DNA from: an uncultured Candidatus Saccharibacteria bacterium
Lineage (GTDB): Bacteria; Patescibacteriota; Minisyncoccia; CAIUEV01; JAHKAQ01
Direction: 5' to 3'
NCBI GenBank assembly: GCA_964598205.1
Contig: CAZRBB010000003.1
Span: 17,046 to 81,045 of the forward strand
Length of the DNA: 64,000 bases
A model generated the notes under the pieces. It had not been told where the DNA came from. It saw only the letters and a list, made by a program, of their open reading frames with translations, and ran no database searches. The position numbers and the translations under genes are program-made. Below, piece after piece: positions 31,919-55,744 of this stretch (within the stretch, counting starts at the first letter, position 1; each line of letters begins with the position of its first letter).

Positions 31919-32316
31919 TGAGATTCAAGGTTCCCCAAAATATTGACATTGAAGACAAGATTGTTGGTCCCTTAACGGGAAAACAGTTCCTTTGGCTTTT
32001 AGGAGGAGCAGTTATTATGCTTCTTATTTGGAGGTTGGTAGACTTTTCTTTGTTTATTGCTTTTTCTGTTGTAATAATGGGAACAATGTGTGCTTTTGCT
32101 TTTATTCGACCCTACCAACAAAACATGATTGTTTTTTTGGGGAACATCTTTCTTTATTCCAGCAAGGGAAAGCAGTTTCTTTGGAAAAAAGAAGTCGGTC
32201 CAGTAGAAAAACGACTTTCTAGGAAACCAGAGGAAGAAATTATTATTGTTAAAAAGTCTTTTTCTTACAAAGAAGCAGAGAAGCTAGCAAAAACATTGGA
32301 CAGCCAAGAAAAATAA
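31918..32316 (+). CDS. PrgI/VirB3-like small membrane protein
   Basis: N-terminal FKVPQNIDIEDKIVGPLTGKQFLWL followed by two TM helices, the hallmark of the Gram-positive PrgI family. Located immediately upstream of VirB4. Confidence 0.5.
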   Translation: MRFKVPQNIDIEDKIVGPLTGKQFLWLLGGAVIMLLIWRLVDFSLFIAFSVVIMGTMCAFAFIRPYQQNMIVFLGNIFLYSSKGKQFLWKKEVGPVEKRLSRKPEEEIIIVKKSFSYKEAEKLAKTLDSQEK

Positions 32317-32321
32317 AAAAA

Positions 32322-33026
32322 ATGCAAGAAAGTCTAAATGCAAAAAAATTAATAAGGAACAACATTCAAAGTGCTAGCACCCAGCAGTTTTTGGATATCA
32401 ACGAAATAAAAGATGGGGTAGTGATTTTAAAAAATGGGGCACTGAGATCTGTTTTAATGGTTTCTTCTATTAATTTTGATTTAAAATCAATAGAAGAGCA
32501 GGATGCGATTATTTACCAATATCAAAGCTTTCTTAATTCTCTTGACTTCCCAATCCAAATTCTTATCAGCTCCAGAAGAATAAATTTAAAGAAATACATT
32601 GAAAGTTTGCAAGAAATTTCCAGAAAACAAACAAACGAACTGCTCCACATGCAAACAGAAGATTATATTCAATATGTTTCTTCTATGGTTACGGTTACCA
32701 ATATTGTGAATAAAACTTTTTACATTGTTGTTCCTTTTTCGCCAGTAGAAAACCAAAAAAGCGGAGTGGCAGATAAGTTCTTTGGTTTTTTTACTCCTAA
32801 AAAAACAGAGGACATAGAGAAGCAAAAAGGGTTTGTGGTTTATAAAAATCAGCTTTGGCAAAGAGTAGAACAGGTTCAGTATGGATTGAGCGGAGCAGGA
32901 ATTAGAATGGTTGCACTAGGAACTCAGGAACTAGTAGAGCTTTACTATTCAATGTATAATCCGGGATCTATTGAAAGACTGGAGCTAGCTCCAATAGAGG
33001 AGATGGCTATTAATACTTCTTTTTAA
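32322..33026 (+). CDS. Hypothetical protein, possibly a VirB4/TrbE N-terminal-domain-like fragment
   Basis: FLDINEIKDGVVILKNGALRSVLMVSSINFDLKSIEEQDAI resembles the VirB4 N-terminal region. Same reading frame as the downstream VirB4, separated by one TAA and 6 nt. Confidence 0.3.
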   Translation: MQESLNAKKLIRNNIQSASTQQFLDINEIKDGVVILKNGALRSVLMVSSINFDLKSIEEQDAIIYQYQSFLNSLDFPIQILISSRRINLKKYIESLQEISRKQTNELLHMQTEDYIQYVSSMVTVTNIVNKTFYIVVPFSPVENQKSGVADKFFGFFTPKKTEDIEKQKGFVVYKNQLWQRVEQVQYGLSGAGIRMVALGTQELVELYYSMYNPGSIERLELAPIEEMAINTSF

Positions 33027-33032
33027 CTTATT

Positions 33033-34838
33033 ATGTCTTTCTTTTTTTCAAAAAATAAAAACAACAAAACGCCGAATAGTGGCGAACGAGAATATCAAAA
33101 CGAGGTTATAACGATTAGAGACTTAATTGCACCGGCTTCTTTTTATGTAACGCCTTCGTCTCTGCGAGTTGGGGAGAAGCTGGTCAAAACAATTTTTATT
33201 ATTACTTATCCTCGCTATTTACAAACCGGCTGGTTTTCTTCGGTTATCAATCTGGATAAAATGCTAGATGTTTCCATGTTTATTCATCCCATTGATACAA
33301 ATGTTATTTTAAAATCTTTGCGTAAAACTGCAACACAAGTTCAATCTAGAATGACTATGGAGTCTCAGTCTGGAAAAATCAGAGATCCAATCCTAGAAAC
33401 ATCCCTTAACGACATTGAAGAACTAAGAGATCGTTTACAACAGGGGACGGAAAGATTTTTTCGTTTTGGTGTTTACATTACTATTTATGGAAACTCTCCC
33501 AAAGAGCTAGAAGATTTAAGCGCTTCGATTGAGTCTTCTATGGAGGCTCGTTTAATTTATTTAAAGCCCGCCGTTTTTAGAATGGAGCAAGGATTCGCTT
33601 CCACTCTGCCCATTGCTAACGACGAACTAGACGCTTCTACAAACCTCAACACTTCCCCGCTTTCTACTTCTTTCCCTTTTACCTCTTCCAATTTAAGCTC
33701 TAACGATGGAATTCTTTACGGGATAAATCGACACAACAACAGTTTGATTCTTTTTGATCGATTTAAAATGGAGAACGCGAACATGGTAGTTTTTGCTAAA
33801 TCGGGCGCAGGTAAGTCTTATTTTACAAAACTAGAAATTGTTCGCTCTTTAATGATGGGAGCGCAGGTAATTGTGATTGATCCAGAAAATGAATATAAAC
33901 ACCTTTGCGAGGCCGTGGGAGGGTCTTTTATTAAGATCTCCCTAAACTCCCCCAATCATATAAATCCTTTTGACCTGCCAGTACTTCAAGAAGATGAGAG
34001 CCCTGAAGATGTTTTGCGAGGTAATATTGCTAATCTTTTAGGATTAACAAGAATTATTTTGGGAAACATTACCCCTGAAGAAGATTCTATTTTAGATAAA
34101 GCAATTAAAGAAGCTTACGCGGCCAAAGATATTACCCCTGACTCTCCTGAGTTCCAAGCAACATCACAAGACCCCCCAACAATGTCTCTCCTTTATGAGG
34201 TCCTAAGAAACATGAGTGGCGGAGAAGACTTGGCCACTAGGCTTGAAAAATATACAGAAGGAACCTTTGCCGGATTCTTAAACAAGCCAACAAATGTTCG
34301 AATTGATACCCAGCTGGTTGTTTTTAATATCCGAGACATGGAAGAAATCTTGCGACCAGTAGCAATGTATTTGGTTTTGCAGTTTATTTGGAACAGAATT
34401 CGCTCTGATATGCGAAAAAGACTTTTAATTGTTGACGAGGCCTGGATTATGATGGCCCATGAAGATGCTGGCGATTTTATGTTCCAAATAGCCAAACGGT
34501 GTCGAAAATACTACACTGGATTAACAACCATTACCCAAGATGTTACCGATTTTATAAATTCCCGCTACGGAAAACCCATTATTACAAACTCTTCTCTGCA
34601 GCTCCTACTAAAGCAATCTCCGGCTTCGGTTGATATTATTTCTGAAACCTTTTATCTTACAGAACAAGAGAAGTTTCTCCTTTTAGAAAGCTCAGTAGGA
34701 GAAGGGATTTTTTTTGCGGGACTAAAACATGCTGCAATCAAGGTGGTCGCTTCTTACACGGAAGATCAAATAATCACATCTAACCCGGCACAATTAATAG
34801 AAATTGCTAAAGCCAAAAAGGAGCTAACACTAAGCTAA
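33033..34838 (+). CDS. virB4: VirB4/TrbE/CagE-family conjugal-transfer-type ATPase
   Basis: Walker A AKSGAGKSY; Walker B LLIVDEAW; typical VirB4 N-region (YPRYLQTGW). Confidence 0.85.
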   Translation: MSFFFSKNKNNKTPNSGEREYQNEVITIRDLIAPASFYVTPSSLRVGEKLVKTIFIITYPRYLQTGWFSSVINLDKMLDVSMFIHPIDTNVILKSLRKTATQVQSRMTMESQSGKIRDPILETSLNDIEELRDRLQQGTERFFRFGVYITIYGNSPKELEDLSASIESSMEARLIYLKPAVFRMEQGFASTLPIANDELDASTNLNTSPLSTSFPFTSSNLSSNDGILYGINRHNNSLILFDRFKMENANMVVFAKSGAGKSYFTKLEIVRSLMMGAQVIVIDPENEYKHLCEAVGGSFIKISLNSPNHINPFDLPVLQEDESPEDVLRGNIANLLGLTRIILGNITPEEDSILDKAIKEAYAAKDITPDSPEFQATSQDPPTMSLLYEVLRNMSGGEDLATRLEKYTEGTFAGFLNKPTNVRIDTQLVVFNIRDMEEILRPVAMYLVLQFIWNRIRSDMRKRLLIVDEAWIMMAHEDAGDFMFQIAKRCRKYYTGLTTITQDVTDFINSRYGKPIITNSSLQLLLKQSPASVDIISETFYLTEQEKFLLLESSVGEGIFFAGLKHAAIKVVASYTEDQIITSNPAQLIEIAKAKKELTLS

Positions 34839-34842
34839 AAAA

Positions 34843-35253
34843 ATGGAAAACATTAGTAAAAAAAAGATTTTTTTCTTTCTCCTGCTGCTCTTTCTTCTTG
34901 TTGTGCCAGTTATTGCTTCTTATGCCAAGTGGGATTTAGAGATTGATATTCCCGTGGATGGCGCTACCGATACTATCCCTGGATATGTTAACAAGATATA
35001 CAAGTTTGTTGTTACGGTTATTGGAATTTTGGGCGCCGGAATGTTTATGATTGGAGGGTTTCAGTATCTTGTTTCTGCCGGCAATACTTCTTCTGTGGGG
35101 CACGCCAAAGAAACTATTTTTGCTGCTCTTGCTGGACTAATCATTGTTTTTGCCTCTTTTCTTCTTTTGCGAATAATCAATAAAGAATTAACAGACCTAT
35201 CTAATCCAACAACACTAAAGGAGTCTTCTTATTTTTTGGCTCTGTTGCCCTAG
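34843..35253 (+). CDS. Pilin-like (VirB2/TrbC-like) small protein: signal peptide plus two TM helices
   Basis: 136 aa. N-terminal signal/TM, a central Gly-rich hydrophobic helix GILGAGMFMIGG, and a second TM; sits directly after VirB4. Confidence 0.45.
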   Translation: MENISKKKIFFFLLLLFLLVVPVIASYAKWDLEIDIPVDGATDTIPGYVNKIYKFVVTVIGILGAGMFMIGGFQYLVSAGNTSSVGHAKETIFAALAGLIIVFASFLLLRIINKELTDLSNPTTLKESSYFLALLP

Positions 35254-41826: not shown

Positions 41827-42945
41827 ATGAAAATAACTCTTACTAAGGAGAACATTCAGAAGGCTGTTAAAAAGTGTTTGTCTTTAACAACCACAAACAC
41901 ATCTCTTCCTATTTTGTCTAGCGTTCTTTTAGAAGCAATAAAAGGGGAGCTTGTTTTAAGTGTTACTAATTTAGAGTCTGGCTTAATTGTTAGGTCTAGA
42001 GCTTCAGTGGAAAGAGAGGGGAAAGTTGTGGTCTCTTTTAAAATTTTAAGCGGAGTTATTAGTGGGTTAGTTTCCAATGTTCTAACTTTAGAGAAAAGTG
42101 GCAATTCTTTGAAAATATCAACAGATGTTTTTGAAGCAGAAATAAAAATAAACGAAGACGAAGAGTTTCCTTTGATTCCGCAAATAAAAAAAGAAAATGA
42201 TTTTTTATTAAGTCCAGTAACACTTTCGGAAGCTATTAAAAAAGTATTACCAGCAACAGCTGTTTCAGGAATGAAGCCAGAATTAACTAGTGTTTATTTA
42301 GCTTCTTCTAAGGATGGGCTAAAAGTGGTTGCTACTGACGGTTTTCGATTAATCGAGGTAACATTAGGGAAGGAGGTAGGGAAAATTGATCCAATTATTA
42401 TTCCTTATAAAACGGCCCAGGAGGCTTATAAAATATTAAGCGGTATTCAGGGGGAGGATGTTTGTTTTTATACCCGAGAGAGTCAATTTATAATAGCTGG
42501 AAGCGATTTTTATTGGGTGTCTCGAGTGATTGATGGTCATTACCCAGATTATTGTAAAATAATTCCTCAAACAAAAATAACAGAGATTCTTTTTAAAAAA
42601 GAAGATTTTTTAGAGGCGGTAAGGGGCGCAGCAATTTTTGCCAACAATGAAACAAACGATGTGGTTCTTGACTACTCTTTAAAGAGCGGAAAAGTAACCG
42701 TTTTTGCCGAATCACAAAAAACAGGAAAATTCTCTGTGAAAATAGATAGCAAGATAGAGGGAAAAGAGGGGCGCATCTGCTTGAATTATAGATATTTATT
42801 AGATGGGCTTTTATGTTTAGAAAGCGAGGAAATTATAATGCTTATAAACCAAGAAACCAGCCCAGTGCTTTTAAAAGCAAAAAAAGCAAAAAAAGAAAGC
42901 AGTGTTCTTTGTTTAATATCGCCAATCAAAAAAAACAATGCTTGA
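41827..42945 (+). CDS. dnaN: DNA polymerase III beta sliding clamp
   Basis: 372 aa with three-domain beta-clamp organisation, immediately after dnaA. Confidence 0.95.
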   Translation: MKITLTKENIQKAVKKCLSLTTTNTSLPILSSVLLEAIKGELVLSVTNLESGLIVRSRASVEREGKVVVSFKILSGVISGLVSNVLTLEKSGNSLKISTDVFEAEIKINEDEEFPLIPQIKKENDFLLSPVTLSEAIKKVLPATAVSGMKPELTSVYLASSKDGLKVVATDGFRLIEVTLGKEVGKIDPIIIPYKTAQEAYKILSGIQGEDVCFYTRESQFIIAGSDFYWVSRVIDGHYPDYCKIIPQTKITEILFKKEDFLEAVRGAAIFANNETNDVVLDYSLKSGKVTVFAESQKTGKFSVKIDSKIEGKEGRICLNYRYLLDGLLCLESEEIIMLINQETSPVLLKAKKAKKESSVLCLISPIKKNNA

Positions 42946-43237
42946 TTTAGGACAAGAAGTGCAGGGCGTTTGGAAAAGAGCTGTTTTTTCTGGTGAGTTT
43001 AAATCCTTCCTGATTTGTCGTTATGCTACCGAGAGTATAGAAAAAATCACTCAACTTTCTGTGGGAAAAATAAAAGCAAAAAAATATTGCCAACAAACAA
43101 AAACACTAGAGATTGAAATGGAAGGCGTTTCTATTGGACAAGTGATTCGGAGGCAAGAAGAAAGGATTATAGAAGATGTGAACAAAAGAATTGGTGCTTG
43201 TTGTTTAAGGAAAATAAGATATCGTCTTTTTTCTTAG
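42938..43237 (+). CDS. Hypothetical protein, possibly DUF721/DciA-like (located after dnaN)
   Basis: 99 aa with a C-terminal pattern (TLEIEMEG ... IIEDVNKRIG ... IRYRL) reminiscent of DUF721; positional support only. Confidence 0.3.
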   Translation: MLDLGQEVQGVWKRAVFSGEFKSFLICRYATESIEKITQLSVGKIKAKKYCQQTKTLEIEMEGVSIGQVIRRQEERIIEDVNKRIGACCLRKIRYRLFS

Positions 43238-45453
43238 TTTTCCTCTTTTCCTTTGCAGCCGGTTTTTTCTGGAGGGCTTGGGTCTATATTGTTTTCTTCG
43301 GCCCATTTTTTTACGCCATCTTCCCAGCTTTTAAACTGAGGATCATTTTTTGGTTCTTTAGGATAAGGACCTCGGGGATCGTCTTTGTCTATGTAGAAAA
43401 GAATAGAATGGCTTTCTCTAAAGGTTTTTTTCTTAGTGTTTTTAGAGGAACAGGTTTCACTAGCCAGGTACCCTGATTTTTTATCAATACGCAGTTCTAC
43501 TTCTTTTTCTAAAAAACCTCCAATCATGGGCTTATTTACATCTTCTTCTTCTGGTCGGATAAAGTCTTCTTTTGAGTAATCATTAATAAAGCGGTCCATA
43601 AAATTCCTCCAGATAGGGGCTGCTACAACAGAACCATCTGCTCCTTGCTTCATTGGAAGATTATTGTTATTGCCAACCCAAACACCAACAGCTATTTGGG
43701 GCGTGTAGCCAACGGTCCAGGCGTCTCTAAATTCTTGAGTGGTTCCTGTTTTGCCAGCAGTGTTTTTCCCAGAGATATATAGCGGATTGTTTCTGCCAAA
43801 AACAGGAGCTCTGGCGGAATTATCGGAAAGACAGTCATTTATTTGTCTGGCTATTTGAGAGTTTAAAACCCTTTTTCCGCCAGGACTGATATTTTCTTTA
43901 ACAAGCCCTCCCTCAGAGTTTTCAATTTTTAAAATGCTTTTTTCTTCTTGTTTAAGGCCGTCGTTGGCAAAAACAGAGAAGGCCTGGGTTTCTTCTTTTA
44001 GGGTAACCTCTCCTCCTCCTAAGACTAAAGCTAGGCCATAGCGACTTCTGTCTTTTAGTGTTTTAATTCCCATAGATTCGGCCAGGTCAATAGTTTCGTT
44101 AATTCCAGAAAGATAGAGCGTTTTAACGGCAGGAACATTTAGCGACATGGCAAGGGCGCTCTTCATGCTTATTGGGCCAATGAATTTCCCGCTGTAATTT
44201 TGGGGAGAGTATTTTACGCCAGGTCGATCTTCAAAGTCTGTTTTTACATCAAAAAGAATGGTTTTTGGTAAGTATCCTTTAATAAAAGCTGCGGCATACG
44301 CAAAGGGCTTAAAAGAAGACCCTGGCTGTCGGGGTCTTAGGGCAACATTTACATTTCCATTATTCTCTTTGTCAAAATAGTCAACAGAGCCAACCATTGC
44401 TAAAACTTCTCCATTTTTAGGATCAATAACCACCATAGCAGCATTAGTAGCTCCAAAATCTTTCTTATTTCTTTCTGCTTGTTGTTTTATTGCTTCTTCG
44501 GCGGCTATTTGTAGTTTCCAGTCTAGGGAGGTGTATATTTTTAGTCCCCCGCTTTCTATAAAGCCTTCTCCATATTCATCGACTAGTTTTTGTTTAACAT
44601 AAATAACAAAATGAGGGGCTTTAATTAAAGTGGCAAAGGGTTTTATTTTAGAAATAGTGTCTATTTTTAAGGCTTCTACTGCTTCGGATTGTTTAATGTA
44701 GCCCAAGTCTTCCATTCTTTTAATGATCCATTCTTTCCTCCAAAGGAGTCTTTCAATATTGTTGCCATAAGGAGAATAAAATGTTGGGGCCTTGGGAAGC
44801 GCTGCTAGAACGGCGCTTTCGTCTAAAGAAAGCTCTATGGCTGGTTTTCCAAAAAAGGTTTGGGCAGCGGCTTCAATCCCATAAGCATTGGAACCATAAG
44901 GAATTTCATTGAGATACATTTCTAGGATTTGATCCTTAGAAAAGCGTCGTTCTAATTCTAAGGAAAGAATGGCTTCTTTTACTTTTCGGGTATAAGTTTT
45001 TTCTGAAGAAAGAACAGAGTTTTTAATAAGCTGTTGTGTGATAGTAGAAGCTCCTTGGGATTTTGAATGCTTAAGATCTGCCAAGATGGCTCTTAAAATA
45101 GCTTTAAAATCTAATCCATGATGGTTATAGAATTGATCGTCCTCTGCAACAATGGTTGTGTTTTTTATAAAAAGAGGCATTCTGTTAAAAGGAATAACAG
45201 TCCTCTTTTCTTCTCCATGGATCTCATAAAGAAGAACTTCTCCGGTGCGATCAAAAATTTTAGTGGACTCGGCCATTTTCCTTTGGGATAGCTGGCCGGA
45301 AGAAGGAAGCTCTCTTGAGTAGTAAATAAAAACTCCTACCGCAAAAACAATTGCCAAAAGAAACCCGCTTACAAAAAGCTTAGCCAAAAAGAAAAAAAGA
45401 CTTCTTTTTTTTGGTTCAGGGAGTTTTTCTTTGGAAGGTTTTTTTGTGATCAT
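43234..45453 (-). CDS. Class A penicillin-binding protein (transglycosylase plus transpeptidase)
   Basis: N-terminal TM anchor; GT51 motifs (EDDQFYNHHGLD, ITQQL); transpeptidase domain with SxxK/SxN/KTG-type regions. Confidence 0.9.
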   Translation of the reverse strand: MITKKPSKEKLPEPKKRSLFFFLAKLFVSGFLLAIVFAVGVFIYYSRELPSSGQLSQRKMAESTKIFDRTGEVLLYEIHGEEKRTVIPFNRMPLFIKNTTIVAEDDQFYNHHGLDFKAILRAILADLKHSKSQGASTITQQLIKNSVLSSEKTYTRKVKEAILSLELERRFSKDQILEMYLNEIPYGSNAYGIEAAAQTFFGKPAIELSLDESAVLAALPKAPTFYSPYGNNIERLLWRKEWIIKRMEDLGYIKQSEAVEALKIDTISKIKPFATLIKAPHFVIYVKQKLVDEYGEGFIESGGLKIYTSLDWKLQIAAEEAIKQQAERNKKDFGATNAAMVVIDPKNGEVLAMVGSVDYFDKENNGNVNVALRPRQPGSSFKPFAYAAAFIKGYLPKTILFDVKTDFEDRPGVKYSPQNYSGKFIGPISMKSALAMSLNVPAVKTLYLSGINETIDLAESMGIKTLKDRSRYGLALVLGGGEVTLKEETQAFSVFANDGLKQEEKSILKIENSEGGLVKENISPGGKRVLNSQIARQINDCLSDNSARAPVFGRNNPLYISGKNTAGKTGTTQEFRDAWTVGYTPQIAVGVWVGNNNNLPMKQGADGSVVAAPIWRNFMDRFINDYSKEDFIRPEEEDVNKPMIGGFLEKEVELRIDKKSGYLASETCSSKNTKKKTFRESHSILFYIDKDDPRGPYPKEPKNDPQFKSWEDGVKKWAEENNIDPSPPEKTGCKGKEEN

Positions 45454-46900
45454 GAGGGGCTTTATGAGTTTGGGTGATATGGAGGGATTGATAGGTGGCC
45501 TTTACCACAGAAGCTCCAAAGGCATTGAGCCTTGTTCCCATATTTTGGCTTATTTGGCAAGAGAACACAACCCTGAAAATGCGACCGGGATCTTTTTTGT
45601 TTATTTTTCGAGGAAAAGAAGGAACGCCGTCTACTATTAAAAATTCTTTAGCGTTTTTAATCTGAGAAAAAGAAAATCCTTTTCTTTTAAAAACAAGCTT
45701 TTTATTCTTTAAGCAATAAACACCAGCTCTCAGAGAACCTTTTATAAAAGCCGGCTTATAAGGAGCTCGGACAAAGAGATGGGCTTTTTCCGGAGACTTA
45801 ATAGAAAGTGTTTCTTTTTTTTGATACAAAGCTCTAGGAAGGGGTTGTTTAAGAAATTCTAAAACATGAAAAGCAACTAATGGAATTTCTTTTTTTTGAA
45901 GCTGAATTAGCGTAGAAACAGGGAATGTTCCTAAGAGTCGAGGGTTTAACTCTAATGGGAAAACATTTTTTTGTTTCCAATCAACAATAAAATCAACACC
46001 AAAAATTCCCCTAAAGCCTTCTTTTCTTAGGGCTATGCCTATTTGCTGGACTGTTCTTTTCATTTTGCCCTGTATTTGTTTTTTAATTTTAAAAGCCTCG
46101 CTCCAGTCGTGCCCGCAAAAGACGCCTTGGCCCTTTGCTTGAGGGAAAAGCTCTTGGATGTCGATTAATTGAAGCTGAGGAGGGATTTGGAATATTTTTT
46201 TCTTAGTTACGCATCCTGTAATGCTAGGAGAAAACCCATCAACAAATGGAGAAACAACAACAGAAGAGCTCCAAGAAAGTTGCTGGTCTTTTTTAAGCAC
46301 GGTAATGGCAGTTGCAAAATCGGTTTTGTTTTTTATAAAAAAAGTTCCACCACCACCTCCTCTTTTTGGGTTTTGAACAACAAAGACAGAGGAAAAGATG
46401 CGAGAAGCGTTGTTGTATCCCTGTTTTTTAAGAACGGCTAGTGTTATGTTTTTTTTAAGCAACCCAGAGAGCGAGGCTTTTTTTAAAAGTTTTTTAAAAA
46501 AAACCTTATTTTCTAGCTTTTTTTCTAGAGATATAGGATTGGCAGCAAGAATCCAGCCCTTTTTCTTGGCCAAGAATTCCAAAGACGAACTGCTTTTATA
46601 AAGAAGGATGACGGGAGGATTCTTTTTGTTTGCTAATCCAATAAAAGATTGCGCGTTTTTATCCTTAAGAACAGAAAAAGGGTTTCTTTTGGTTTCTTTT
46701 GGGATTTTTTTAAGAGATTCTTCTAGGCAAAAAAGAGGAATGCCAAACTTTCTTATATGTTCGATTTCCGCCGAATAGTTTAGGCAGGCAATTTTGAAAT
46801 TTGGAAAAATATTTTCACAACCAATACGACCAAAGGCCTGAACAGAAGCTCCAATAATGGGGTTTTTAATTTTTTCAAAGAGAGTTTTGGTGCTGGTCAT
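45416..46900 (-). CDS. ATP-grasp family ligase (second of two tandem ATP-grasp genes)
   Basis: Glycine-rich loop KRGGGGGTFF and C-terminal ATP-grasp motif FGVDFIVDWKQKNVFPLELNPR. Confidence 0.6.
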   Translation of the reverse strand: MTSTKTLFEKIKNPIIGASVQAFGRIGCENIFPNFKIACLNYSAEIEHIRKFGIPLFCLEESLKKIPKETKRNPFSVLKDKNAQSFIGLANKKNPPVILLYKSSSSLEFLAKKKGWILAANPISLEKKLENKVFFKKLLKKASLSGLLKKNITLAVLKKQGYNNASRIFSSVFVVQNPKRGGGGGTFFIKNKTDFATAITVLKKDQQLSWSSSVVVSPFVDGFSPSITGCVTKKKIFQIPPQLQLIDIQELFPQAKGQGVFCGHDWSEAFKIKKQIQGKMKRTVQQIGIALRKEGFRGIFGVDFIVDWKQKNVFPLELNPRLLGTFPVSTLIQLQKKEIPLVAFHVLEFLKQPLPRALYQKKETLSIKSPEKAHLFVRAPYKPAFIKGSLRAGVYCLKNKKLVFKRKGFSFSQIKNAKEFLIVDGVPSFPRKINKKDPGRIFRVVFSCQISQNMGTRLNAFGASVVKATYQSLHITQTHKAPHDHKKTFQRKTP

Positions 46901-48300
46901 CTATTCTTGTAAATAGTTCTCGGTTTTTGGGGGTCTATAATAAAGCTTTTAAGCGCTGCTCGACCAATAATTGCCTTACACTTTAGCTCTCTTCGATCGG
47001 CAATGGTAGCGGGAACTTCAAAAGAAACGCCTCCCAATGACAGGCTAATCCGTACTTTAGGGCGAAGGGTTTTTCCATTAGCAGAAAGAACACTAACTGC
47101 TCCCAAAAAAAGAGGATGAGTTTTTAGCTTTTCTTTTTTGGCGTGGTTATTGAAGTAAGGGTTAAAGCTTTCTAAGATTTCCCCAAAACCCAAAGATTCG
47201 GCTAGCTCAGAACAAATAGAAGTAGAATAGGCGCCAGTGTCTATTTTAGCCTCGACTGTTTTTTCTAGATTAGATAGAGGGTTTTTTACAGTAATAGATT
47301 CAAAAATTCCAATAATTTTCCTTCCAGTAAGATCTTCTATGTCTTCTTCTATTTCTCCGCCAAAAAGATCTTGTCCTACACGAACACCTCTTTTAGCCGA
47401 GATTATTTTAAGCCCCTCTACCTTGTTTAGTCTAGATTTTAACGGAGCAAGGTTGGCAATTTGAATGCCCAGTCCTGGTCGGGCATTGAGTTCTGCAACA
47501 ATAGGGCCTCTTTCTCTGTCGATCATAATATCTACTCCCAAATATCCAATTCCGGAAAGCTGTTGTGTTTTAATGGACATTTCTAGAACTTCTTGCCAAA
47601 AAGGGATGGCGATTCCTGAAAGAGAAAGACGGGTTTTGGGAACCTTTTCTAAAAAGAATTCTTTCTGGGTGGCCATGTTTCGAGTAATGGCAGTGGTGGT
47701 GATTCCAGTGGCTAGATCTATCCCAGCACAGATCCCTCCCAGATGAAGATTGGCTCGACCGCCAGACTGCTCGGTAGGGAGTCTTAGCATGGCCATTATT
47801 GGAACATTGTTAAAAACAATAACGCGAATGTCTGGAATTCCCCGAAAACAATAGGGCTTGAAAAGTTTAATAATTCGAACCCTTTCTTCAAAGAAGGCAG
47901 AGTCAACAACCCCAGACAACGAATAGTTTCCTTCTAGGATATTGATAATGTGTGTTTTTAAGTCTTGGACAGAGACTTCTTGTTTGTCTGCTTTTACCCA
48001 GTTACCGTTTTTTTTCTTTCCATAAACAACAATAATCCCTTCGCCTCCAAGACCTTTGTTTGGTTTAAGGGCAAAGGAGCTGGGTAGATTTTCCCAATTA
48101 AAAGAATCAAGCTCTTTTAGGCTGGAGATTTTTCCTATTAAAGAGGAAACAGGAATATTGTTTTTTCGGAGTAGTCGTTTGGTTAGGAGTTTGTTGTCGG
48201 CAAACTTCCGCGCTCCCTTTTTGTTATAGGGCCGGGTATATTCTAGATTGCGGGAGTTCATCCCCAAAAGCTGGCTACTTTTTTTCAGGAATTTCAACAT
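46897..48300 (-). CDS. Alpha-L-glutamate-ligase-related ATP-grasp enzyme fused to a C-terminal retropepsin-like (DTGA, clan AA/DUF785-type) domain
   Basis: ATP-grasp motifs (ANLHLGGICAGIDL, GYLGVDIMIDRERGPIVAELNARPG) followed by KIDTGAYSTSI and a beta-rich tail typical of the putative ATP-dependent zinc protease/retropepsin-like family. Confidence 0.65.
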   Translation of the reverse strand: MLKFLKKSSQLLGMNSRNLEYTRPYNKKGARKFADNKLLTKRLLRKNNIPVSSLIGKISSLKELDSFNWENLPSSFALKPNKGLGGEGIIVVYGKKKNGNWVKADKQEVSVQDLKTHIINILEGNYSLSGVVDSAFFEERVRIIKLFKPYCFRGIPDIRVIVFNNVPIMAMLRLPTEQSGGRANLHLGGICAGIDLATGITTTAITRNMATQKEFFLEKVPKTRLSLSGIAIPFWQEVLEMSIKTQQLSGIGYLGVDIMIDRERGPIVAELNARPGLGIQIANLAPLKSRLNKVEGLKIISAKRGVRVGQDLFGGEIEEDIEDLTGRKIIGIFESITVKNPLSNLEKTVEAKIDTGAYSTSICSELAESLGFGEILESFNPYFNNHAKKEKLKTHPLFLGAVSVLSANGKTLRPKVRISLSLGGVSFEVPATIADRRELKCKAIIGRAALKSFIIDPQKPRTIYKNR

Positions 48301-48934
48301 TTTTTATAACTTCTTTGAACCTAAAATATTCAGAAAAACGAAGACCTGTCCATTTTCCTAGGGCAATATTAAAGAGAATAACTAAAATAATAAGCCAAGG
48401 ATAACTAAGTAAAAGTGTTCGCAAAAAATCGGCACTAGCTACAAAGTAGGCCAGAATGGAAAGAAGAAGTGTTTCTAAGGACAAAAAAATAGCCGTTTTG
48501 GCCCCCTTTTCTATTTGAACCAAAATAAACTTTTCCATTAAAGTGATCATGATTAAAAGAGGGAAAATAGAGACCGAGGCTAAGCCAGTTCTTTTAAAAT
48601 AACCTCCAAGCATTAATACAAAAAAAATGGCTACAGAAACAAGGGAGAGCATAATAGATACTCGAGGAAGGTGCAGTAAGCGAAACCCCTTAAGAGTAAT
48701 GCGAGAAATGGTTCCAGCTATTAAAATGATTAGAAAAAGGAAAACTCCATATTTTAGTCCAGTGGAAAGGAAGGCAATGGCGATAATAGACGGAGTGTAA
48801 ATACCAAAAGCCTTAATTCCAATAACTTGCCTGGCAATTGCCATGGTAGTTACAATCAGGGGGAAAATTAAAATTAGTTCAATGGTTTCTTGGGGAACGC
48901 CTTGGGTTGATGCAAACCTAACAATGTTGTGCAT
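48275..48934 (-). CDS. Seven-TM membrane protein (partner of the ATP-grasp/retropepsin module)
   Basis: 219 aa with seven predicted hydrophobic helices; first gene of the overlapping operon. Confidence 0.5.
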   Translation of the reverse strand: MHNIVRFASTQGVPQETIELILIFPLIVTTMAIARQVIGIKAFGIYTPSIIAIAFLSTGLKYGVFLFLIILIAGTISRITLKGFRLLHLPRVSIMLSLVSVAIFFVLMLGGYFKRTGLASVSIFPLLIMITLMEKFILVQIEKGAKTAIFLSLETLLLSILAYFVASADFLRTLLLSYPWLIILVILFNIALGKWTGLRFSEYFRFKEVIKNVEIPEKK

Positions 48935-48993
48935 TTTTGAAGATTAATAAAAATCGCTATTAGCTTATACTTTAGCAAAAAGAAAAACAAGAA

Positions 48994-49464
48994 TTAAAGG
49001 CGAGAATTAAAATGGCAAAGAGAGGCAGCGAGGGCGTCGGAAGCGTCGTCTAGCATGGAACATTTTTGAAGACCTAGAATAGTAGTGACCATTTTTAATA
49101 CTTGATTTTTATCGGCTCGACCATAGCCAACCACTGCCTGCTTGATTTGTAGCGGAGTGTACTCAAAGACGTCAAGACCTGCTTCTTTGACGGTTAAAAT
49201 AAGAACCCCTCTGGCGGCGGCCACTGCCATTGCGGTCTTGGAATTCTTGGCAAAAAAAAGACTTTCTATTGAGGCTACTGTTGGGTGGTATTGCTTGATG
49301 ATTTTTCTAAGATCTTTTTTGATCTGACAAAGACGTTCGGGAAAACAGTCGTTCTTAGAGGTGGTAATACAGCCAAAGTCTAAAACATTAAAAGAGCGTT
49401 CTTTAGAAAGAACACCATAGCCAACTCTTGCAAATCCAGGGTCAAGACCTAAAACAATTTTCAT
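48994..49464 (-). CDS. ruvC: Holliday junction resolvase RuvC
   Basis: MKIVLGLDPGFARVGYGV N-terminus and RNase H-fold catalytic residues. Confidence 0.9.
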   Translation of the reverse strand: MKIVLGLDPGFARVGYGVLSKERSFNVLDFGCITTSKNDCFPERLCQIKKDLRKIIKQYHPTVASIESLFFAKNSKTAMAVAAARGVLILTVKEAGLDVFEYTPLQIKQAVVGYGRADKNQVLKMVTTILGLQKCSMLDDASDALAASLCHFNSRL

Positions 49465-49472
49465 AGATAGGG

Positions 49473-51398
49473 CTAAAAATTAAAAACAGAAAACAAAAAG
49501 TTAACAAAATAATTCTTAAGATTCAAGAGGGACAGGCTGTTTTTGGGTTTTTTAAGAGAAAGAGGATTGTTGAACATTTCTTTTGATTCTTTTGTTGGCG
49601 GCTGGGTTTTTAAAAGGGTGTTTGCTGGTTCATTGTTGGTCACGGTCTTTTGTTGGGAAGCGGTGGTTTTTTGCGTGGCCAGCATTAAGGATTGGTTGAT
49701 AGAAATAGATGTTTTAATTTCTTTTATGCTGTTTGTGATTATTTTTTTTCCACCGAGAGAATCTTCTTCCAATATCCCTTTTACCTTAAAAGAAGAGTTT
49801 TTCTTTATTGCTAAAAGGTCCTGATCGATCTGTGGAGGAAATTCTAGAAGAAGTTCGAATCCATTTTTGTTTTTAATTAAAAAGCGCTTGTTTTTAGCAT
49901 AGGAGATTGTTCCAGAAAATTCAACCAAAGAAGCAACAAGAGGGGAACAGTCTTTTTTGCTAAGGCAAATATCTAAAGATGCTTCGTTGAGTTTTTTTTG
50001 ACCGTCTGCTCTTGCTTGTTCTTCTTTTTCCGATTTAAGGAAAAGACGATCGTTGTTTTTATAAAGAGTGCCAGAAATAATGAGCCGATCTTGTTCTTGG
50101 AAGGAATGAATATAGCCTGTTTTTACAAGAATACCGCCACCGTTGAGCTGTAAATAAAAACCGCTTTTACCAAAAGGAGAGGCAAGAGAAGAAACCGTTC
50201 CCACAATAAGAACAGAAGAAAGGTTGGGCTTTTTTTTTAGGGAAGTAAAATGGCTTTGGGCTTGGTCGGTCTTTGTTAGGAAATCTTTAGGAAAAATAAG
50301 TTCACGAGAGGAGCCCGAAAGAGTGGCCGATTCCGTGCTTGGTGTGGCAGAGCTTGATGGACAGGACTCTTCTAGGCATTCAGGGTTGATCCAAAAAAGA
50401 TAGCCATCGTTATTTTTAAAGAAAACCTTATTTTCTTTGGCTGACTCTTTAAAAGAAAGAGAATTGATTAATGTCTTGTTTGGGGCAACCAGGGAAATGG
50501 TTTCCGAAGAATTATGAAGGTCAAAACCAAAGAAGTTTCCGAATAGCTGTATTGTTTTTTTAGGACCAAGAATAAGGTCTGTGTTGAAAATAAAATCATC
50601 TTCGCTTTGATTAAGAAGCTTCCAGTTATAAAGATTAACATTAAAATTGTTGGGGTTTGAAATAACGACAAACTCTTTTTCTTTTGTGTCTAGGCCAGAG
50701 GGGTTTGGGAAAATTGCCTGAACTACAAGAGAAGGATAGCTGTTTGTTTTTTCTTGAGCTGATAATAACGATGGATTTGATGGTTCGGCGGAGGAATTCG
50801 TAGTGGCGTTGGGTGGATCGGTGGTGTCACTGGAGGACCCTGGCAAGATAGAGGTTGGGTTAAGGGAAGAATCTTTTGGTGCTGTTCCGGGAGTGCCGTA
50901 TTCAGAATTTTCCAAAAGAGAGGTGCTTGCCTTCCAAAGATTGGAGCTTGGGAAAAACTCCAAAGAAACGCCTTCTTTTACTGATGATGCTTGATATTCC
51001 AAGGAGGAGCATTCTTTTTGTTCTGATCCAAAAATAATTTTCCCACCAGAATTAACCAGAGAAAGCTTTTCGTATTGATAAAAACAGGGAATGTTTTTTT
51101 GAGAAAGAGCTTCTTTGTTTCTGCAGGCAACAGAATAAGAGAGTGGTTCTAAGAAAAAATCTTCTTTAATGGTAAAGGAAGATTGATTGGCAATAAGGGT
51201 AAGATCTTTTAAATTTACAGCAACAGCAGATTCATTAAAAAGCTCCAACCATTCTCCCTCAGTATCGGAAAAAATGGCGGGGTTAATCATTGCTTCGCTT
51301 AAGACGACTCCCGGTGGGCAATCGGCAGCGAAGGTTGCCGAGGGGAAGAAAGACCAAATACTTCCAAAAAATAAAACAGAAAAAAATAATGGCTTCAT
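49473..51398 (-). CDS. Secreted protein with two lamin-tail (LTD) domains and a Ser/Thr-rich linker
   Basis: Signal peptide; LTD motifs (EAMINP ... EWLELFN ... VNLKDLTL; and IFPNPSG ... EFVVISNP ... VNLYNWKL); low-complexity S/T-rich region. Confidence 0.6.
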   Translation of the reverse strand: MKPLFFSVLFFGSIWSFFPSATFAADCPPGVVLSEAMINPAIFSDTEGEWLELFNESAVAVNLKDLTLIANQSSFTIKEDFFLEPLSYSVACRNKEALSQKNIPCFYQYEKLSLVNSGGKIIFGSEQKECSSLEYQASSVKEGVSLEFFPSSNLWKASTSLLENSEYGTPGTAPKDSSLNPTSILPGSSSDTTDPPNATTNSSAEPSNPSLLSAQEKTNSYPSLVVQAIFPNPSGLDTKEKEFVVISNPNNFNVNLYNWKLLNQSEDDFIFNTDLILGPKKTIQLFGNFFGFDLHNSSETISLVAPNKTLINSLSFKESAKENKVFFKNNDGYLFWINPECLEESCPSSSATPSTESATLSGSSRELIFPKDFLTKTDQAQSHFTSLKKKPNLSSVLIVGTVSSLASPFGKSGFYLQLNGGGILVKTGYIHSFQEQDRLIISGTLYKNNDRLFLKSEKEEQARADGQKKLNEASLDICLSKKDCSPLVASLVEFSGTISYAKNKRFLIKNKNGFELLLEFPPQIDQDLLAIKKNSSFKVKGILEEDSLGGKKIITNSIKEIKTSISINQSLMLATQKTTASQQKTVTNNEPANTLLKTQPPTKESKEMFNNPLSLKKPKNSLSLLNLKNYFVNFLFSVFNF

Positions 51399-51468
51399 TT
51401 TTTTAAATTAATAAAGCCATTGTTGCAAAATAAAATAAACTTTTTTTAAAAAACAATTAAAATTAAAA

Positions 51469-52494
51469 TTAAAATAACTTTTCCGGGCTTAGGCCCAAAT
51501 GGGAATAAGCTTCTGGGGTAGCAATTCTTCCCCTAGGAGTTCTTTCTAAGAAACCGATTTTTATTAAATAAGGCTCATAGACTTCTTCTAGTGTATCTTT
51601 TTCTTCTCCGGTGGCAGCGGCTAGAGCAGAAATGCCGGCTGGGCCACCATTAAACTTTTTGATTAATACATCTAAAAGCAAGCGATCGGCGTTTTCCAGC
51701 CCTGTTTCGTCTATCTCTAGCATTTTAAAAGCTATCTGGGCGATTTTATGGTCAATAGTGCCGGTTCCTTTGATTTGGGAAATATCCCGAACTCTCTTTA
51801 GTAGTCGATTAGCTACGCGCGGATTTTTCCGGCTGCATTTGGCGATTAAAGAAAGCCCGTCTTTTTCGATAGGAACTTTTAAAAGCTTGCCAGAGCGTTC
51901 AATGATTTGGCTGATTTCTTGATCAGAATAAAAATCAAGTCGGTAAGAAATGCCGAACCGGCTTCTTAGGGGAGAAGAGATAAGGCCAGCACGAGTGGTG
52001 GCACCGATTAGAGTAAATCGAGGAAGATCTAGTTGTAGTGTTTTAGCAGAAGGACCTTTACCAATAATAATGTCTAGTTTATAGTCTTCCATTGCCGGAT
52101 AAAGAGCTTCTTCTACTAGCTTGTTTATTCGATGAATTTCGTCAATAAATAAAACATCTCCATCTTCTAGGTTGGTTAGAATAGAGGCTAAGTCTCCAAC
52201 TCTCTCTATTGCAGGGCCAGAGGTGGGTTTAAAATTTTTGCCCATTTCATTGGCAATGACATGAGAAAGGGTGGTTTTACCAAGGCCGGCTGGGCCATGA
52301 ATTAAAACATGTTCCAAGGATTCCTGTCTCTTTTTGGCAGCTTCAATAAAAATTTTTAGGTTTTCCTTAATTTGTGATTGGCCAATATAATCCGCAATTG
52401 TTTGGGGTCGCAAAGTGAACTCCAGTTGGGGGTCCTTTTCGGAAGCAGAAAATATTTTTTCTTTCTTTTCTTTTTTAAATGAAGATTCAATCAT
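51469..52494 (-). CDS. ruvB: Holliday junction branch-migration helicase RuvB
   Basis: Walker [11 protein letters not shown]; 341 aa. Confidence 0.95.
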
Positions 52495-52705: not shown

Positions 52706-55700
52706 TTATTCTTCTGTAGCGCGAATAATTTCTGCCATACTAGTAATTCCTTCAACTACTTTTAGGACACCGTCTTGAGCCATCGTCAACATGCCTTCGG
52801 AAACGGCTTGCTTTAGAATAACAGAAGTGGTGGAGAAACGGGAAATTAATTCTTCTAGGGCTTCGGACATGACCATTACCTCTGTGACCGGAGCAATCCC
52901 GGAATAGCCAGTATTTTTACACTTAAGGCAACCTACGGGAACAAAAATTTGTTCTATTTTTTGAGGGATAGCAATATGAGCCGTTTCGGGAATGCTTCTG
53001 ATAACGGTTTTTATTTTTTCTAAAACTTCTGGACTGGGGTTTTCGGCTCTTTTGCATTCTGGGCAGAGGCGACGAACTAGTCGTTGTGCCATTAGGGCAT
53101 TAGTGGCAGAAGCAATGTCGGAAGGGTCAATGTTCATGTTAAGCAACCGCTGGACAGAAGCTACTGCATTGTTGGTGTGAAGGGATGAGAGAACTAAATG
53201 GCCAGTCAGAGAAGCTTGGATAGCAATCTTGGCAGTTTCTTCGTCTCTGATTTCTCCAATCATTAGAACATCTGGGTTTTGACGGAGCAGTGCGCGAAGA
53301 GCGCTGGAAAAATCGTAACCTTCTTCGGTGTTGATTTGAGTTTGCAGAACGCCCTTTAGGCGGTATTCAATTGGGTCTTCTACGGTGATTATTTTTCGTT
53401 CAGGAGTATTGATTTTATTTAACAGAGAATAAAGAGTAGTAGTCTTTCCACTACCGGTGGGGCCAGTGTTTAAGATAATTCCATTGGGTTTCTCTACTTC
53501 AGCCAAGAGTCGGCTTAAGGTTTCCGACCGAATCCCTATTGCATTAATGTCTAGAGAACGAGCTGATTTATGAAGAAGTCTAATCACAACGGTTTCCCCA
53601 TATCCTCCTGTAATAATAGAAACACGAGCGTCAATTTCTTGGTCGGCAATATTTTCTAGAGGGATTTTGAGCTTAATACCAAAACGACTATCGCGGACGG
53701 CCTGATGAGAGCTAGCTTTAAAGCCGGAAAGGTTTTTAATTCTTCCAAGAAGAGGGAAATAAGTGTTGCCGGAAATGGAGCCAATGTCTTGGAGAATGCC
53801 ATCAATGCGGAAACGAATTTTTACCCCATCTCCTTCTGGTTCAAGGTGGATGTCTCCTGCATCAAAATACAGTGCTCCACCAATAACATATTCTAGAGAG
53901 TTTTGATTGGTGGCGCTTGTAATTAAGGCGGCTAGGGCCTGAGGATTGAACTTTGTTTTGAAAACATCTTTTAGCTGATCTTCTTCTAAAACGATTTGCA
54001 AAGAAAGAAGGCGACTCATTACATTGTCGTAAATTTCTTTTAAAAACTCTCCAGAACCAGTGGCTCGCTGAATTTCTTCCATGCTTGTTTCTCCAGTAAC
54101 GGCCTTAAGAATGCCGTCTTGCAAAAGAGTTACCATACCATCTTCCATGGCAGCGCTGAGAATATCGGAATCGGGCTTCATTTCTATAATTAAGTCTTCA
54201 ATGTTTTTATTTATTTCTAAAACCTCGAAAATGCCGATACGCCCTCGATATCCTAAGCTATGACACTTAGGACAACCAACGGCCCGAAAAAGAGTCTTAA
54301 TGTCTTTAGGGATTTCTAAGTTGGCCTTGGGAGAAATAATGGAAAGAAATTGGCCGATGGTTTCTAGGGTTCCCGAGGCGGGAACATATTCTTCCTTGCA
54401 GTCAGGACATAGGCGGCGAACTAAGCGTTGAGCAATAATGATATTGCAAGAAGGGCCGATTAGAGATGGTCGAACACCTAAGTCGACTAATCGGGGAATG
54501 GCGCCAGAAGAAGAGTTGGCATGAACAGTGGAAAAAACTAAATGGCCAGTGAGAGCAGCGTGGGTGGCAATGTCGGCGGTTTCTTCGTCTCTAATTTCTC
54601 CTACCAAGATAACATCGGGGTCTTGCCGGACAATAGAGCGAAGTCCCGTGGCAAAATCATAGCCTCTCTCTTTGTGAACTTGGGTTTGGGAAATGCCTGG
54701 TAACTTATATTCGATTGGATCTTCTATGGTAATGATTTTAGTGGAAGGAGAATTAACTCTTTTAAGACAAGCATAAAGAGTGGTTGTTTTACCGCTACCG
54801 GTGGGCCCAGTATTGAGAATCATCCCGTTAGGCTTTTCTATTTGTCCAAGCAATTGATCAAGAGCTCTGCCTCTTAATCCCATTTGGTCTAGGTCAACAC
54901 TAGACATGTCTTGGTTTAAAAGACGCATTACAATATTTTCTCCAAAGTTTCCCGGCAAAAGGGAGACTCTAACATCTACCGAGCCTAGTGCGGCATCTTC
55001 TAAATTTATTTCGAAGCGTCCGTCTTGAGCTTGGTCTTTAATGTTTAGCTTAAGCTGAGCAATCATTTTTACTCGAGAAAGAACATAAGGATAGACTCGG
55101 TACGGAACAAAACAGATGTTTTGCAAGACTCCGTCAATACGATAACGGAGGCGAACATTTTCTTTTTGAGGTTCCAAGTGAATATCGCTAGAGCTAACCT
55201 TGAGTGCTCCGGCAATTATAATGTTTAGGATTTTAGTGGTGGGGAGTTCTAGGATTTTTCGCTGAAGGTTGGATAACTCTTTAATTTCTTCTTCGAATTC
55301 GGCCAAGTCTTTTCCGGAAAGATTGATTTTTGTTTCTTCTAAAAATCCGCCTAAGTTAAAAACTTTGTATTTTTGAAGAGTGCGATTAAAGCCGGTTTTA
55401 GAAACGATGTAAAATCGACAAAGAAATCCTTCTTTTTTTTCTAAGTCGTAAACCGCTTTTTGGGTCATTGGATCCTTGGGGTTCAATGTGGCTACTTTTA
55501 GATTTTTTCCTGATCGCTGAATAATTAGAAGACCGGAATTTCTGGAAAAATCCTCACTGACAGTGTTTAGGGTGTCTATATCTACTGGGAAAATATTTAA
55601 ATCCAAGTAGGGCAACTTTTGTTTGGCAGCAAAAAAAGCAGTTTGTTCTTCTTCAGAATAAGAACGAACTTGTCGCGAGACATCTTGATATGGTAGTTCG

Positions 55701-55744
55701 TTAAATTGTGTTTCTTCTCCTGATTTTTTTTGGATAATAACCAC
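52706..55744 (-). CDS. pilB: Tandem-fused double type II/IV secretion ATPase (two complete GspE/PilB modules in one 1012-aa protein)
   Basis: Two GspII_E N-domains; two Walker A boxes (GPTGSGKTTTLYACL and GPTGSGKTTTLYSLL); two tetracysteine zinc motifs (CPDCK ... CPKCH and CPECK ... CLKCK). Confidence 0.85.
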   Translation of the reverse strand: MVIIQKKSGEETQFNELPYQDVSRQVRSYSEEEQTAFFAAKQKLPYLDLNIFPVDIDTLNTVSEDFSRNSGLLIIQRSGKNLKVATLNPKDPMTQKAVYDLEKKEGFLCRFYIVSKTGFNRTLQKYKVFNLGGFLEETKINLSGKDLAEFEEEIKELSNLQRKILELPTTKILNIIIAGALKVSSSDIHLEPQKENVRLRYRIDGVLQNICFVPYRVYPYVLSRVKMIAQLKLNIKDQAQDGRFEINLEDAALGSVDVRVSLLPGNFGENIVMRLLNQDMSSVDLDQMGLRGRALDQLLGQIEKPNGMILNTGPTGSGKTTTLYACLKRVNSPSTKIITIEDPIEYKLPGISQTQVHKERGYDFATGLRSIVRQDPDVILVGEIRDEETADIATHAALTGHLVFSTVHANSSSGAIPRLVDLGVRPSLIGPSCNIIIAQRLVRRLCPDCKEEYVPASGTLETIGQFLSIISPKANLEIPKDIKTLFRAVGCPKCHSLGYRGRIGIFEVLEINKNIEDLIIEMKPDSDILSAAMEDGMVTLLQDGILKAVTGETSMEEIQRATGSGEFLKEIYDNVMSRLLSLQIVLEEDQLKDVFKTKFNPQALAALITSATNQNSLEYVIGGALYFDAGDIHLEPEGDGVKIRFRIDGILQDIGSISGNTYFPLLGRIKNLSGFKASSHQAVRDSRFGIKLKIPLENIADQEIDARVSIITGGYGETVVIRLLHKSARSLDINAIGIRSETLSRLLAEVEKPNGIILNTGPTGSGKTTTLYSLLNKINTPERKIITVEDPIEYRLKGVLQTQINTEEGYDFSSALRALLRQNPDVLMIGEIRDEETAKIAIQASLTGHLVLSSLHTNNAVASVQRLLNMNIDPSDIASATNALMAQRLVRRLCPECKRAENPSPEVLEKIKTVIRSIPETAHIAIPQKIEQIFVPVGCLKCKNTGYSGIAPVTEVMVMSEALEELISRFSTTSVILKQAVSEGMLTMAQDGVLKVVEGITSMAEIIRATEE

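Follow-up and report, generated by a model that had tools for sequence, protein, structure and literature searches.

Motor ATPases of the PilB/GspE/PilT type have been studied as homohexamers, for which the firing order of the sites (C2 rotary, C3 or C6) and the coupling of the ring to the platform protein are open questions (PMC6858323; PMC10790770). PilB/GspE hexamers use all six sites, and movements of their N2 domains (N2D) are believed to rotate or raise the platform protein. In the PulE6:PulF3 model, the PulF trimer forms an alternating ring of Cyto1 and Cyto2 domains, each of which is met by one N2D, giving a 6:3 stoichiometry (PMC10790770). The platform protein is itself the product of an ancient internal duplication (PMC6668835). 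Genes and components of type IV pili are widespread in bacteria of the candidate phyla radiation (CPR) (PMC6744442). Here we describe a gene located in a 64,000-nucleotide stretch of an uncultured Candidatus Saccharibacteria assembly (contig CAZRBB010000003.1, hereafter the window), whose 1012-aa product carries two such ATPase cores in one chain, module A and module B. The best explanation, which we favour with moderate confidence, is that this vertically conserved, in-frame tandem PilB/GspE-type ATPase forms a three-chain A-B-A-B-A-B ring on a PilC/GspF-type platform.

Among the described systems, the PilB proteins of type IVa pili represented by Geobacter metallireducens PilB (5TSG/5TSH/6OLJ) and the Thermus thermophilus PilF core (5IT5/5OIU) share their full layout with module A and the N1 domain that precedes it. 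Unlike PilB, the tandem chain possesses two complete cores, each consisting of an N2D and a C-terminal domain (CTD), so that six ATP sites need three chains, with three N1 domains per ring. It also differs in having two fixed module types and in being encoded outside a pil operon. GspE/EpsE/PulE (1P9R, 4KSS, 4PHT), which act with GspF/PulF, belong to the same superfamily and score equally with PilB, and the alternating Cyto1/Cyto2-N2D contacts of PulE6:PulF3 offer a geometric reason why an ATPase ring might alternate (PMC10790770). However, neither gspL nor gspF lies near the tandem gene, and the tandem architecture is absent from the solved GspE structures. Since CPR genomes lack the secretin PilQ and apparently have no Gram-negative envelope (PMC6744442), a type II secretion system (T2SS) is unlikely. 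No description of a fused or tandem PilB/GspE assembly ATPase was found in the literature searched; databases already list such proteins under generic names, e.g. 'GspE/PulE family protein'. Within its well-known family, the protein has a novel architecture that is conserved across a clade of ultra-small, Moranbacteria-like CPR bacteria, but it does not constitute a new kind of system.

Layout and conservation of the two modules

The first-pass annotation of this DNA had placed a 1012-aa open reading frame (ORF) at 52706–55744 and proposed that it encodes two PilB/GspE secretion ATPase modules fused in tandem. The ORF is present on the minus strand, and the gene call of the Joint Genome Institute (JGI) for the same region (metagenome 3300045131, contig Ga0485169_0000006, 187 kb) yields the identical 1012-aa protein. 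Its layout is N1, linker, module A, linker and module B, with the following features:

52706–55744 (minus strand): whole gene, 1012-aa tandem PilB/GspE-superfamily ATPase; ORF with a GTG start and an uninterrupted frame
55367–55615 (minus strand): N1 domain (MshEN, formerly GSPII_E_N, PF05157), residues 44–126; one Pfam stretch, 29.2 bits against a cut-off of 23.1
55229–55366 (minus strand): N1-N2 linker of module A, residues 127–172, helical in the secondary structure of the AlphaFold2 (AF2) model
54059–55228 (minus strand): module A, N2D and CTD, residues 173–562, a canonical-type core; Pfam and half-versus-half alignment
54785–54808 (minus strand): Walker A of module A, GPTGSGKT, residues 313–320; 100% conserved in 117 listed homologues
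54263–54409 (minus strand): tetracysteine zinc motif of module A, Cys 446, 449, 491 and 494; each Cys 100% conserved
53897–54058 (minus strand): inter-module linker, residues 563–616 (about 54 aa), the true duplication junction; alignment of the halves
52715–53896 (minus strand): module B, N2D and CTD, residues 617–1010, a derived core without N1; Pfam and half-versus-half alignment
53441–53464 (minus strand): Walker A of module B, GPTGSGKT, residues 761–768; alignment of the halves and homologue alignment
52919–53065 (minus strand): tetracysteine zinc motif of module B, Cys 894, 897, 939 and 942; each Cys 100% conserved

The proposed tandem fusion of two cores was confirmed by the two stretches that Pfam assigns to the T2SSE family (PF00437; 733.8 bits against a cut-off of 24.9) and by the alignment of residues 173–562 with residues 617–1010, which are 47% identical over 394 positions (E = 2e-133). 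The Asp box, Walker B (GEIRD) and His box occur in modules A and B alike, and the residue positions in both modules agree with the earlier assignment of Walker A, Asp and His boxes and a tetracysteine motif to each half. Two other details of that annotation had to be corrected. Each half had been credited with its own N-terminal GspII_E domain; PF05157 matches only once in the protein, at residues 44–126, and Pfam detected no second N1 before module B, which is preceded by the linker of about 54 aa alone. The junction had been located around 54200–54400, a region that corresponds to the zinc-motif part of module A and not to the inter-module linker. Profile-profile comparison showed the inter-module linker to be a homologue of the N1-N2 linker in module A and not of N1 (hhalign 90%, E = 2e-7); the duplicated unit thus consists of the linker, the N2D and the CTD with its zinc motif, repeated with a period of 1344 nt (448 codons). 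As to N1 itself, the RLGxx motif, which we take to mark MshEN domains that bind cyclic di-GMP, was not seen by eye in residues 1–43.

The two-module architecture is almost certainly real. The homologue set comprised the best 120 database clusters, 117 of which are 1000–1060 aa long and match over their full length at 42–69% identity; the sources of these 117 listed homologues are NCBI, ENA, JGI and Logan, and most of them carry the label Patescibacteria, Moranbacteria or Parcubacteria. Moreover, the identical protein was found on five contigs of different assemblies, Logan and JGI included. The aligned codons of modules A and B show 56% nucleotide identity, with no identical stretch longer than 15 nt and a best local repeat of 300 nt at 71%; there is therefore nothing for an assembler to collapse or chain. 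An artefact, whether a misassembly, a collapse of tandem genes or the joining of two neighbouring pilB genes by the gene caller, has the general prior for metagenome assemblies as its sole basis, as nothing specific was found in its favour. Against the uninterrupted frame, the divergence of the halves, the five contigs and the architecture shared by the listed homologues, its probability is negligible, and the misassembly or tandem collapse that the first-pass annotation had named as a possible refutation is not borne out.

Both modules are strongly conserved. In the listed homologues, the Walker A Lys, the Asp-box E-D-P-x-E, the Walker B G-E-I-R-D, both His-box His residues, the N2D R-x-R-x-D-G motif and all eight Cys are 98–100% conserved in module A and module B. 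The Walker B and catalytic Glu residues, the loss of which from one half would have indicated a degenerate duplication, are intact in both halves of the window protein and of its homologues, and neither module lacks any of the catalytic residues. The mean pairwise identity of module A and module B is 0.72 versus 0.68 in the CTD and 0.66 versus 0.63 in the N2D. A comparison was also made with 88 of the closest single-module relatives, among which 89 columns show a conservation of 90% or more. Of these canonical columns, 84 are retained at ≥90% in module A, which has lost none; in module B, 80 are retained and six have been replaced, five in its N2D (S630G, R668N, Q684K, G686S and P712L) and D823N. 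The replacements that were checked are fixed (G630 in 99%, N823 in 99%).

It could be argued from the slightly faster evolution of module B, and from its six lost canonical residues including D823N beside Walker B, that one module has become a catalytically dead, regulatory pseudo-ATPase. Nevertheless, the Walker A Lys, the Asp-box Glu/Asp, the Walker B Glu, the His-box His and the Arg residues of the N2D RxRxDG motif are retained in both modules at the level given above, and the fixation of the replacements themselves indicates that they were selected rather than drifting, so that such a degenerate duplication is very unlikely. Instead, the divergence of module B looks like a subfunctionalisation of its N2D and not like decay. 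Both ATP sites are under strong purifying selection, and both modules probably bind and hydrolyse ATP.

Family placement, genomic setting and origin

The AF2 model, for which an alignment of 74 sequences served as input, has a mean predicted local distance difference test score (pLDDT) of 80.4 and a predicted template modelling score (pTM) of 0.47; thus, the individual domains are confident and their mutual arrangement is not. N1 was modelled as an alpha/beta fold (pLDDT 77–89), and the inter-module linker as helical, with a pLDDT of about 80–87 from residue 590 onward. Foldseek matched each core to PilB/PilF structures with template modelling (TM) scores of 0.88–0.93 and about 41% identity, with PilT and DotB far behind; for module A against PilB 5tsh/5oiu, the TM score was about 0.92. 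The sequence match of the tandem protein to PilB structures reached an E value of about 1e-105, and no chain with two such ATPase cores was found in the PDB. The whole protein, with 867 bits on the PilB equivalog model TIGR02538 (cut-off 675.65), passes the PilB and GspE equivalog cut-offs only because the scores of its two modules add up. It is a secure member of the PF00437 superfamily and of the zinc-motif, assembly-type branch, within which it is not assignable to PilB as opposed to GspE.

Module B lacks N1, as does PilT, and a PilB-PilT fusion in which a retraction ATPase is joined to an extension ATPase was considered and rejected. Module B scores 164.2 bits on pilT_fam (TIGR01420), below the cut-off of 319.1, versus 395–406 bits on the PilB/GspE models, and it is 47% identical to module A versus about 25% structure-based identity to PilT chains. 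Furthermore, it retains the tetracysteine motif and C-terminal region of the PilB/GspE type, and there is practically no likelihood left for such a fusion.

The tandem gene is situated between guaA/fpg and a series comprising ruvB, a Lamin Tail Domain (LTD) protein, ruvC, a penicillin-binding protein (PBP) gene and dnaN/dnaA. Two neighbours on its downstream side are the following:

51469–52494 (minus strand): ruvB, conserved downstream neighbour; Pfam, context only
49473–51398 (minus strand): secreted LTD-domain protein, 641 aa, between ruvB and ruvC; PF00932, context only

The block pilB-ruvB-(LTD/YebC)-ruvC-...-PBP (transglycosylase/transpeptidase)-dnaN, with dnaA adjoining, spans 41827–52494 of the window, and its pilB-ruvB-ruvC-PBP-dnaN order recurs in Paceibacteria-type genomes at loci L011, L016–L022, L024 and L090, where pilB is either single or tandem. 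In more than 20 loci, ruvB adjoins the tandem gene or its single-module orthologue. The same surroundings, with ruvB downstream and often LTD, tsaE, DHH or polA, were found around homologues of 56% and 42% identity and around a three-module variant. An equal arrangement was observed at the tandem loci of GTDB genomes, seven of which were recovered by a pattern-based scan that is not a census. The only conserved neighbours are thus ruvB and, often, the LTD protein, and the block equals that of the single-module pilB in sister lineages. The 641-aa LTD protein of the window contains two Lamin Tail Domain stretches and Ser/Thr/Pro-rich linkers, and LTD (plus PKD) proteins are found near the tandem gene in L005, L007, L008, L084 and L085.

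Two tandem sequences carry labels outside Patescibacteria. One, P0028, is labelled 'Candidatus Bathyarchaeia archaeon'; the other, in L008 (CAZHQB010000030.1), is labelled 'uncultured Micavibrio sp.' and keeps the order tandem gene-ruvB-LTD, with a RuvB 59% identical to that of the window. Binning contamination is more likely than horizontal transfer to explain the presence of these genes in non-Patescibacteria bins.

At no fewer than 11 Paceibacteria/Patescibacteria loci, the pilB-ruvB-ruvC-PBP-dnaN slot is filled by a single-module pilB of 513–578 aa with 49–51% identity to module A. In an exhaustive search, the closest single-module relative was P0426 (GCA_030693205.1), which is 61% identical to the representative P0139 and lies in the context DHH-pilB-ruvB-...-PBP. 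Such orphan pilB genes, exemplified by L017 9995–11731 and P0426, are 49–56% identical to module A and share with the tandem gene both the genomic slot and the layout of N1 plus core, but have a single core, at about 563–578 aa, corresponding to the state before duplication. The common slot identifies the tandem gene as the positional orthologue of the orphan single-module pilB, duplicated in situ. It arose by in-frame duplication of the 448-codon unit (N1-N2 linker, N2D and CTD) inside the orphan pilB of Paceibacteria/Moranbacteria-type Patescibacteria, within the housekeeping block polA/tsaE/DHH-pilB-ruvB-...-ruvC-PBP-dnaN. The intergenic gaps between pilB and ruvB, of about 210–340 nt, suggest that the two genes are transcribed separately; a promoter and terminator scan around the tandem gene gave nothing above the shuffled expectation.

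The tandem PilB-type architecture is rare and has arisen more than once. When module B was searched against 1.84 billion cluster representatives (E ≤ 1e-30), only about 15 of its 13,974 relatives were two-module proteins, all of them top-ranked. Within the core family, identities of 0.69 (A-A) and 0.66 (B-B) exceed that between A and B (0.495), which indicates one old duplication. Three further tandem proteins, located on contigs of 7–40 kb, depart from this pattern. In P0131 (995 aa) the modules are 74% identical to each other and about 45% identical to the core family, and in P0129 (994 aa) they are 57% identical to each other; both are independent, younger duplications with boundaries equal to those of the core family. 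P0135 (1047 aa), whose modules are 44% identical, is likewise an independent tandem duplication of the ATPase unit; in all three proteins, the modules are closer to each other than to the core family. The three-module variant, P0002 (1460 aa), was found on one contig only (L084 10001–14383; JGI 3300022698, Ga0248662_100121, 77 kb) and contains three complete cores. Its middle module is chimeric, with a B-type N2D (66% identical to module 3) and an A-type CTD (64% identical to module 1), and shares only 57% DNA identity with the neighbouring copy; it is therefore old and not an assembly repeat.

Proposed ring assembly and possible cellular role

It is reasonably likely, judging from the sequence features described above, that three chains alternate in one ring. 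In this model, three chains would close into a single six-module ring with A-B-A-B-A-B order, true C3 symmetry and pseudo-C6 symmetry. The architecture of the protein precludes a homohexamer of six identical chains with one core each. Such a ring would carry three N1 anchors only, with the canonical module A holding the sole N1 of each chain, and the linker included in the duplication unit could serve as the tether between modules. As a PilB hexamer does, the ring would work on a platform of the PilC/GspF type, the gene for which would lie outside this region of the genome. Its alternating N2Ds could match the alternating Cyto1/Cyto2 ring of the platform trimer, and the divergence of the module B N2D could represent specialisation for one of the two platform repeats. 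A precedent for a two-repeat chain that forms a six-domain ring as a trimer is given by PilC/GspF, of which TadB/TadC are fission products (PMC6668835, PMC10790770); PilC/GspF is a membrane protein of a different family (PF00482), and the analogy concerns architecture only. An alternating three-chain pseudo-hexamer predicts two intact modules, each conserved in its own right, and the catalytic sites of both would be conserved because all six sites of the ring are needed. Recurrent duplication with equal boundaries and the existence of a three-module form could be understood if the duplication is nearly neutral as long as the ring is preserved; in the three-module form, two chains could again supply six modules.

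Several observations weigh against this assembly or against the pilus role that accompanies it. The AF2 monomer, given its pTM of 0.47, provides no confident module-module packing, and the well-known tandem ATPase duplications (KaiC, p97 and ClpB) form stacked and not alternating rings. Taken singly, the modules fall below the equivalog cut-offs, both on TIGR02538 (module A with N1 479.9, module B 394.8 bits) and on the T2SS GspE model TIGR02533 (478.8 and 406.1 bits, cut-off 630.25). With regard to pilus partners, canonical pil operons (pilB-pilT-pilC-pilins-pilD-pilM/N/O) from Microgenomates and Doudnabacteria loci served as positive controls and as the source of the probes, which were used together with a class III signal-peptide pattern. 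The search for pilM/N/O/C and pilin genes, through which the pilus assignment was open to checking, returned none in 82 kb of the contig (the window plus up to 10 kb on each side), and the same held for pilD and pilT. At the other tandem or orphan loci, no pil gene besides the ATPase was found within 10 kb, L091 excepted. Nor was co-occurrence with a platform established per genome, the 120 best matches to a PilC profile built from canonical patescibacterial operons being almost all of the Doudnabacteria type.

The stacked arrangement seen in other tandem ATPases would require six chains, with an A-ring on a B-ring as in KaiC or type II AAA+ proteins and only the A-ring facing the membrane platform. 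Tandem duplications of P-loop ATPases often stack (KaiC, p97, ClpB, EccC), the N1 domain is confined to module A, and the loss of five invariant residues from the module B N2D is what would be expected if it had no contact with the platform. KaiC, p97 and ClpB also resemble the present protein in having two P-loop cores per chain, both usually nucleotide-binding; however, they are other P-loop families, with two stacked hexameric rings of six chains. No such stacking has a precedent in the PilB/GspE/PilT/VirB11 superfamily, where no two-module PDB chain was found, and both modules of the tandem ATPase keep the full N2D-CTD architecture and the zinc motif. Moreover, young duplications such as P0131 (74%) and the three-module form are easier to accommodate if an existing ring is preserved than if new ring-ring interfaces are needed. 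A stacked double ring is thus rather unlikely, and the alternating three-chain ring is preferred.

A role of the tandem ATPase in type IV filament assembly is likewise favoured to a moderate degree. Locus L091, whose tandem gene is deep-branching, also encodes a PilM homologue at a distance of 8 kb (Pfam PilM_2; tblastn E = 1e-12). This 524-aa PilM_2-family protein (L091 21031–22605, minus strand) has a C-terminal extension with a predicted transmembrane segment and may be a PilM-PilN-type fusion.

The first-pass annotation had combined the tandem ATPase with ComM, the LTD protein and a cluster resembling a type IV secretion system (T4SS) into an elaborate pilus and DNA-uptake machinery. This proposal is weakly supported: the LTD protein is often a neighbour, but ComM (17873–19408) lies about 33 kb and the T4SS-like cluster more than 17 kb from the tandem gene, and neither was near it in the other genomes examined. 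The cluster (26479–35253, plus strand) is of the patescibacterial type and encodes PrgI, a TraC-like protein, a VirB4/DUF87 ATPase and a weak match to T4SS_pilin. It also includes 504-aa and 358-aa proteins without a Pfam match and one of 918 aa whose match to TrbL/VirB6 stays below the threshold (23.7 bits, cut-off 25.9).

It is conceivable, though unlikely, that the protein is not a pilus motor at all and that the ATPase was co-opted, e.g. for DNA uptake or processing with RuvABC and the LTD protein, or for energising the T4SS in the manner of VirB11. The tandem gene was never found in a pil operon, and its linkage to ruvB, and often to the secreted LTD protein, is kept across homologues of 42–69% identity. 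Other Patescibacteria have canonical pil operons with a pilB of their own, and each module scores under the PilB/GspE equivalog cut-offs. On the other hand, the gaps to ruvB measure about 210–340 nt and the block consists of housekeeping genes (polA, tsaE, fpg, holA, PBP and dnaN), so the linkage may be plain synteny. T4SS genes are absent near the tandem gene in the other genomes examined, a PilM homologue is nearby in L091, and the combination of an MshEN N1, an N2D and a zinc-motif CTD is the domain set of assembly ATPases.

A more speculative possibility, which we regard as improbable, is that the gene encodes a separate, origin-proximal motor, conserved next to ruvB and a secreted LTD protein, that assembles as a three-chain C3 A-B-A-B-A-B ring and drives a distinct DNA-uptake or surface-filament apparatus in Moranbacteria-type CPR bacteria. 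It would apply to the tandem ATPase and to its single-module orphan precursor alike, neither of which would be the extension motor of a canonical pil operon, and its alternating N2Ds and the two repeats of a trimeric platform protein would have evolved to fit each other.

If the alternating ring forms, the tandem ATPase would be the motor-side counterpart of the ancient internal duplication of the platform protein. In a natural covalent dimer whose two conserved modules can be told apart, the register of the subunits is fixed, and a mutation in one module alone would change exactly three alternating sites, which otherwise needs engineered concatemers. For CPR biology, the gene marks an orphan motor that is conserved apart from pil operons.

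Other features of the window

The ThyX protein encoded at 4458–6071 (minus strand) is 537 aa long, about twice the usual size; the Pfam Thy1 match is a partial profile restricted to residues 324–474 and leaves an N-terminal region of about 320 aa without a match. The GC content drops to 0.31 between 20001 and 22000, and around 21–22 kb the GC skew, negative until then, becomes positive. Despite this skew turn, dnaA and dnaN are located at 40.3–42.9 kb, and 9-mers resembling DnaA boxes occur in the window at chance level. Between ruvC and the PBP gene, at 45416–48300 and the adjoining 48275–48934 (both minus strand), two ATP-grasp proteins (ATPgrasp_ST and ATP-grasp_3) are encoded beside a 7TM_transglut membrane protein.

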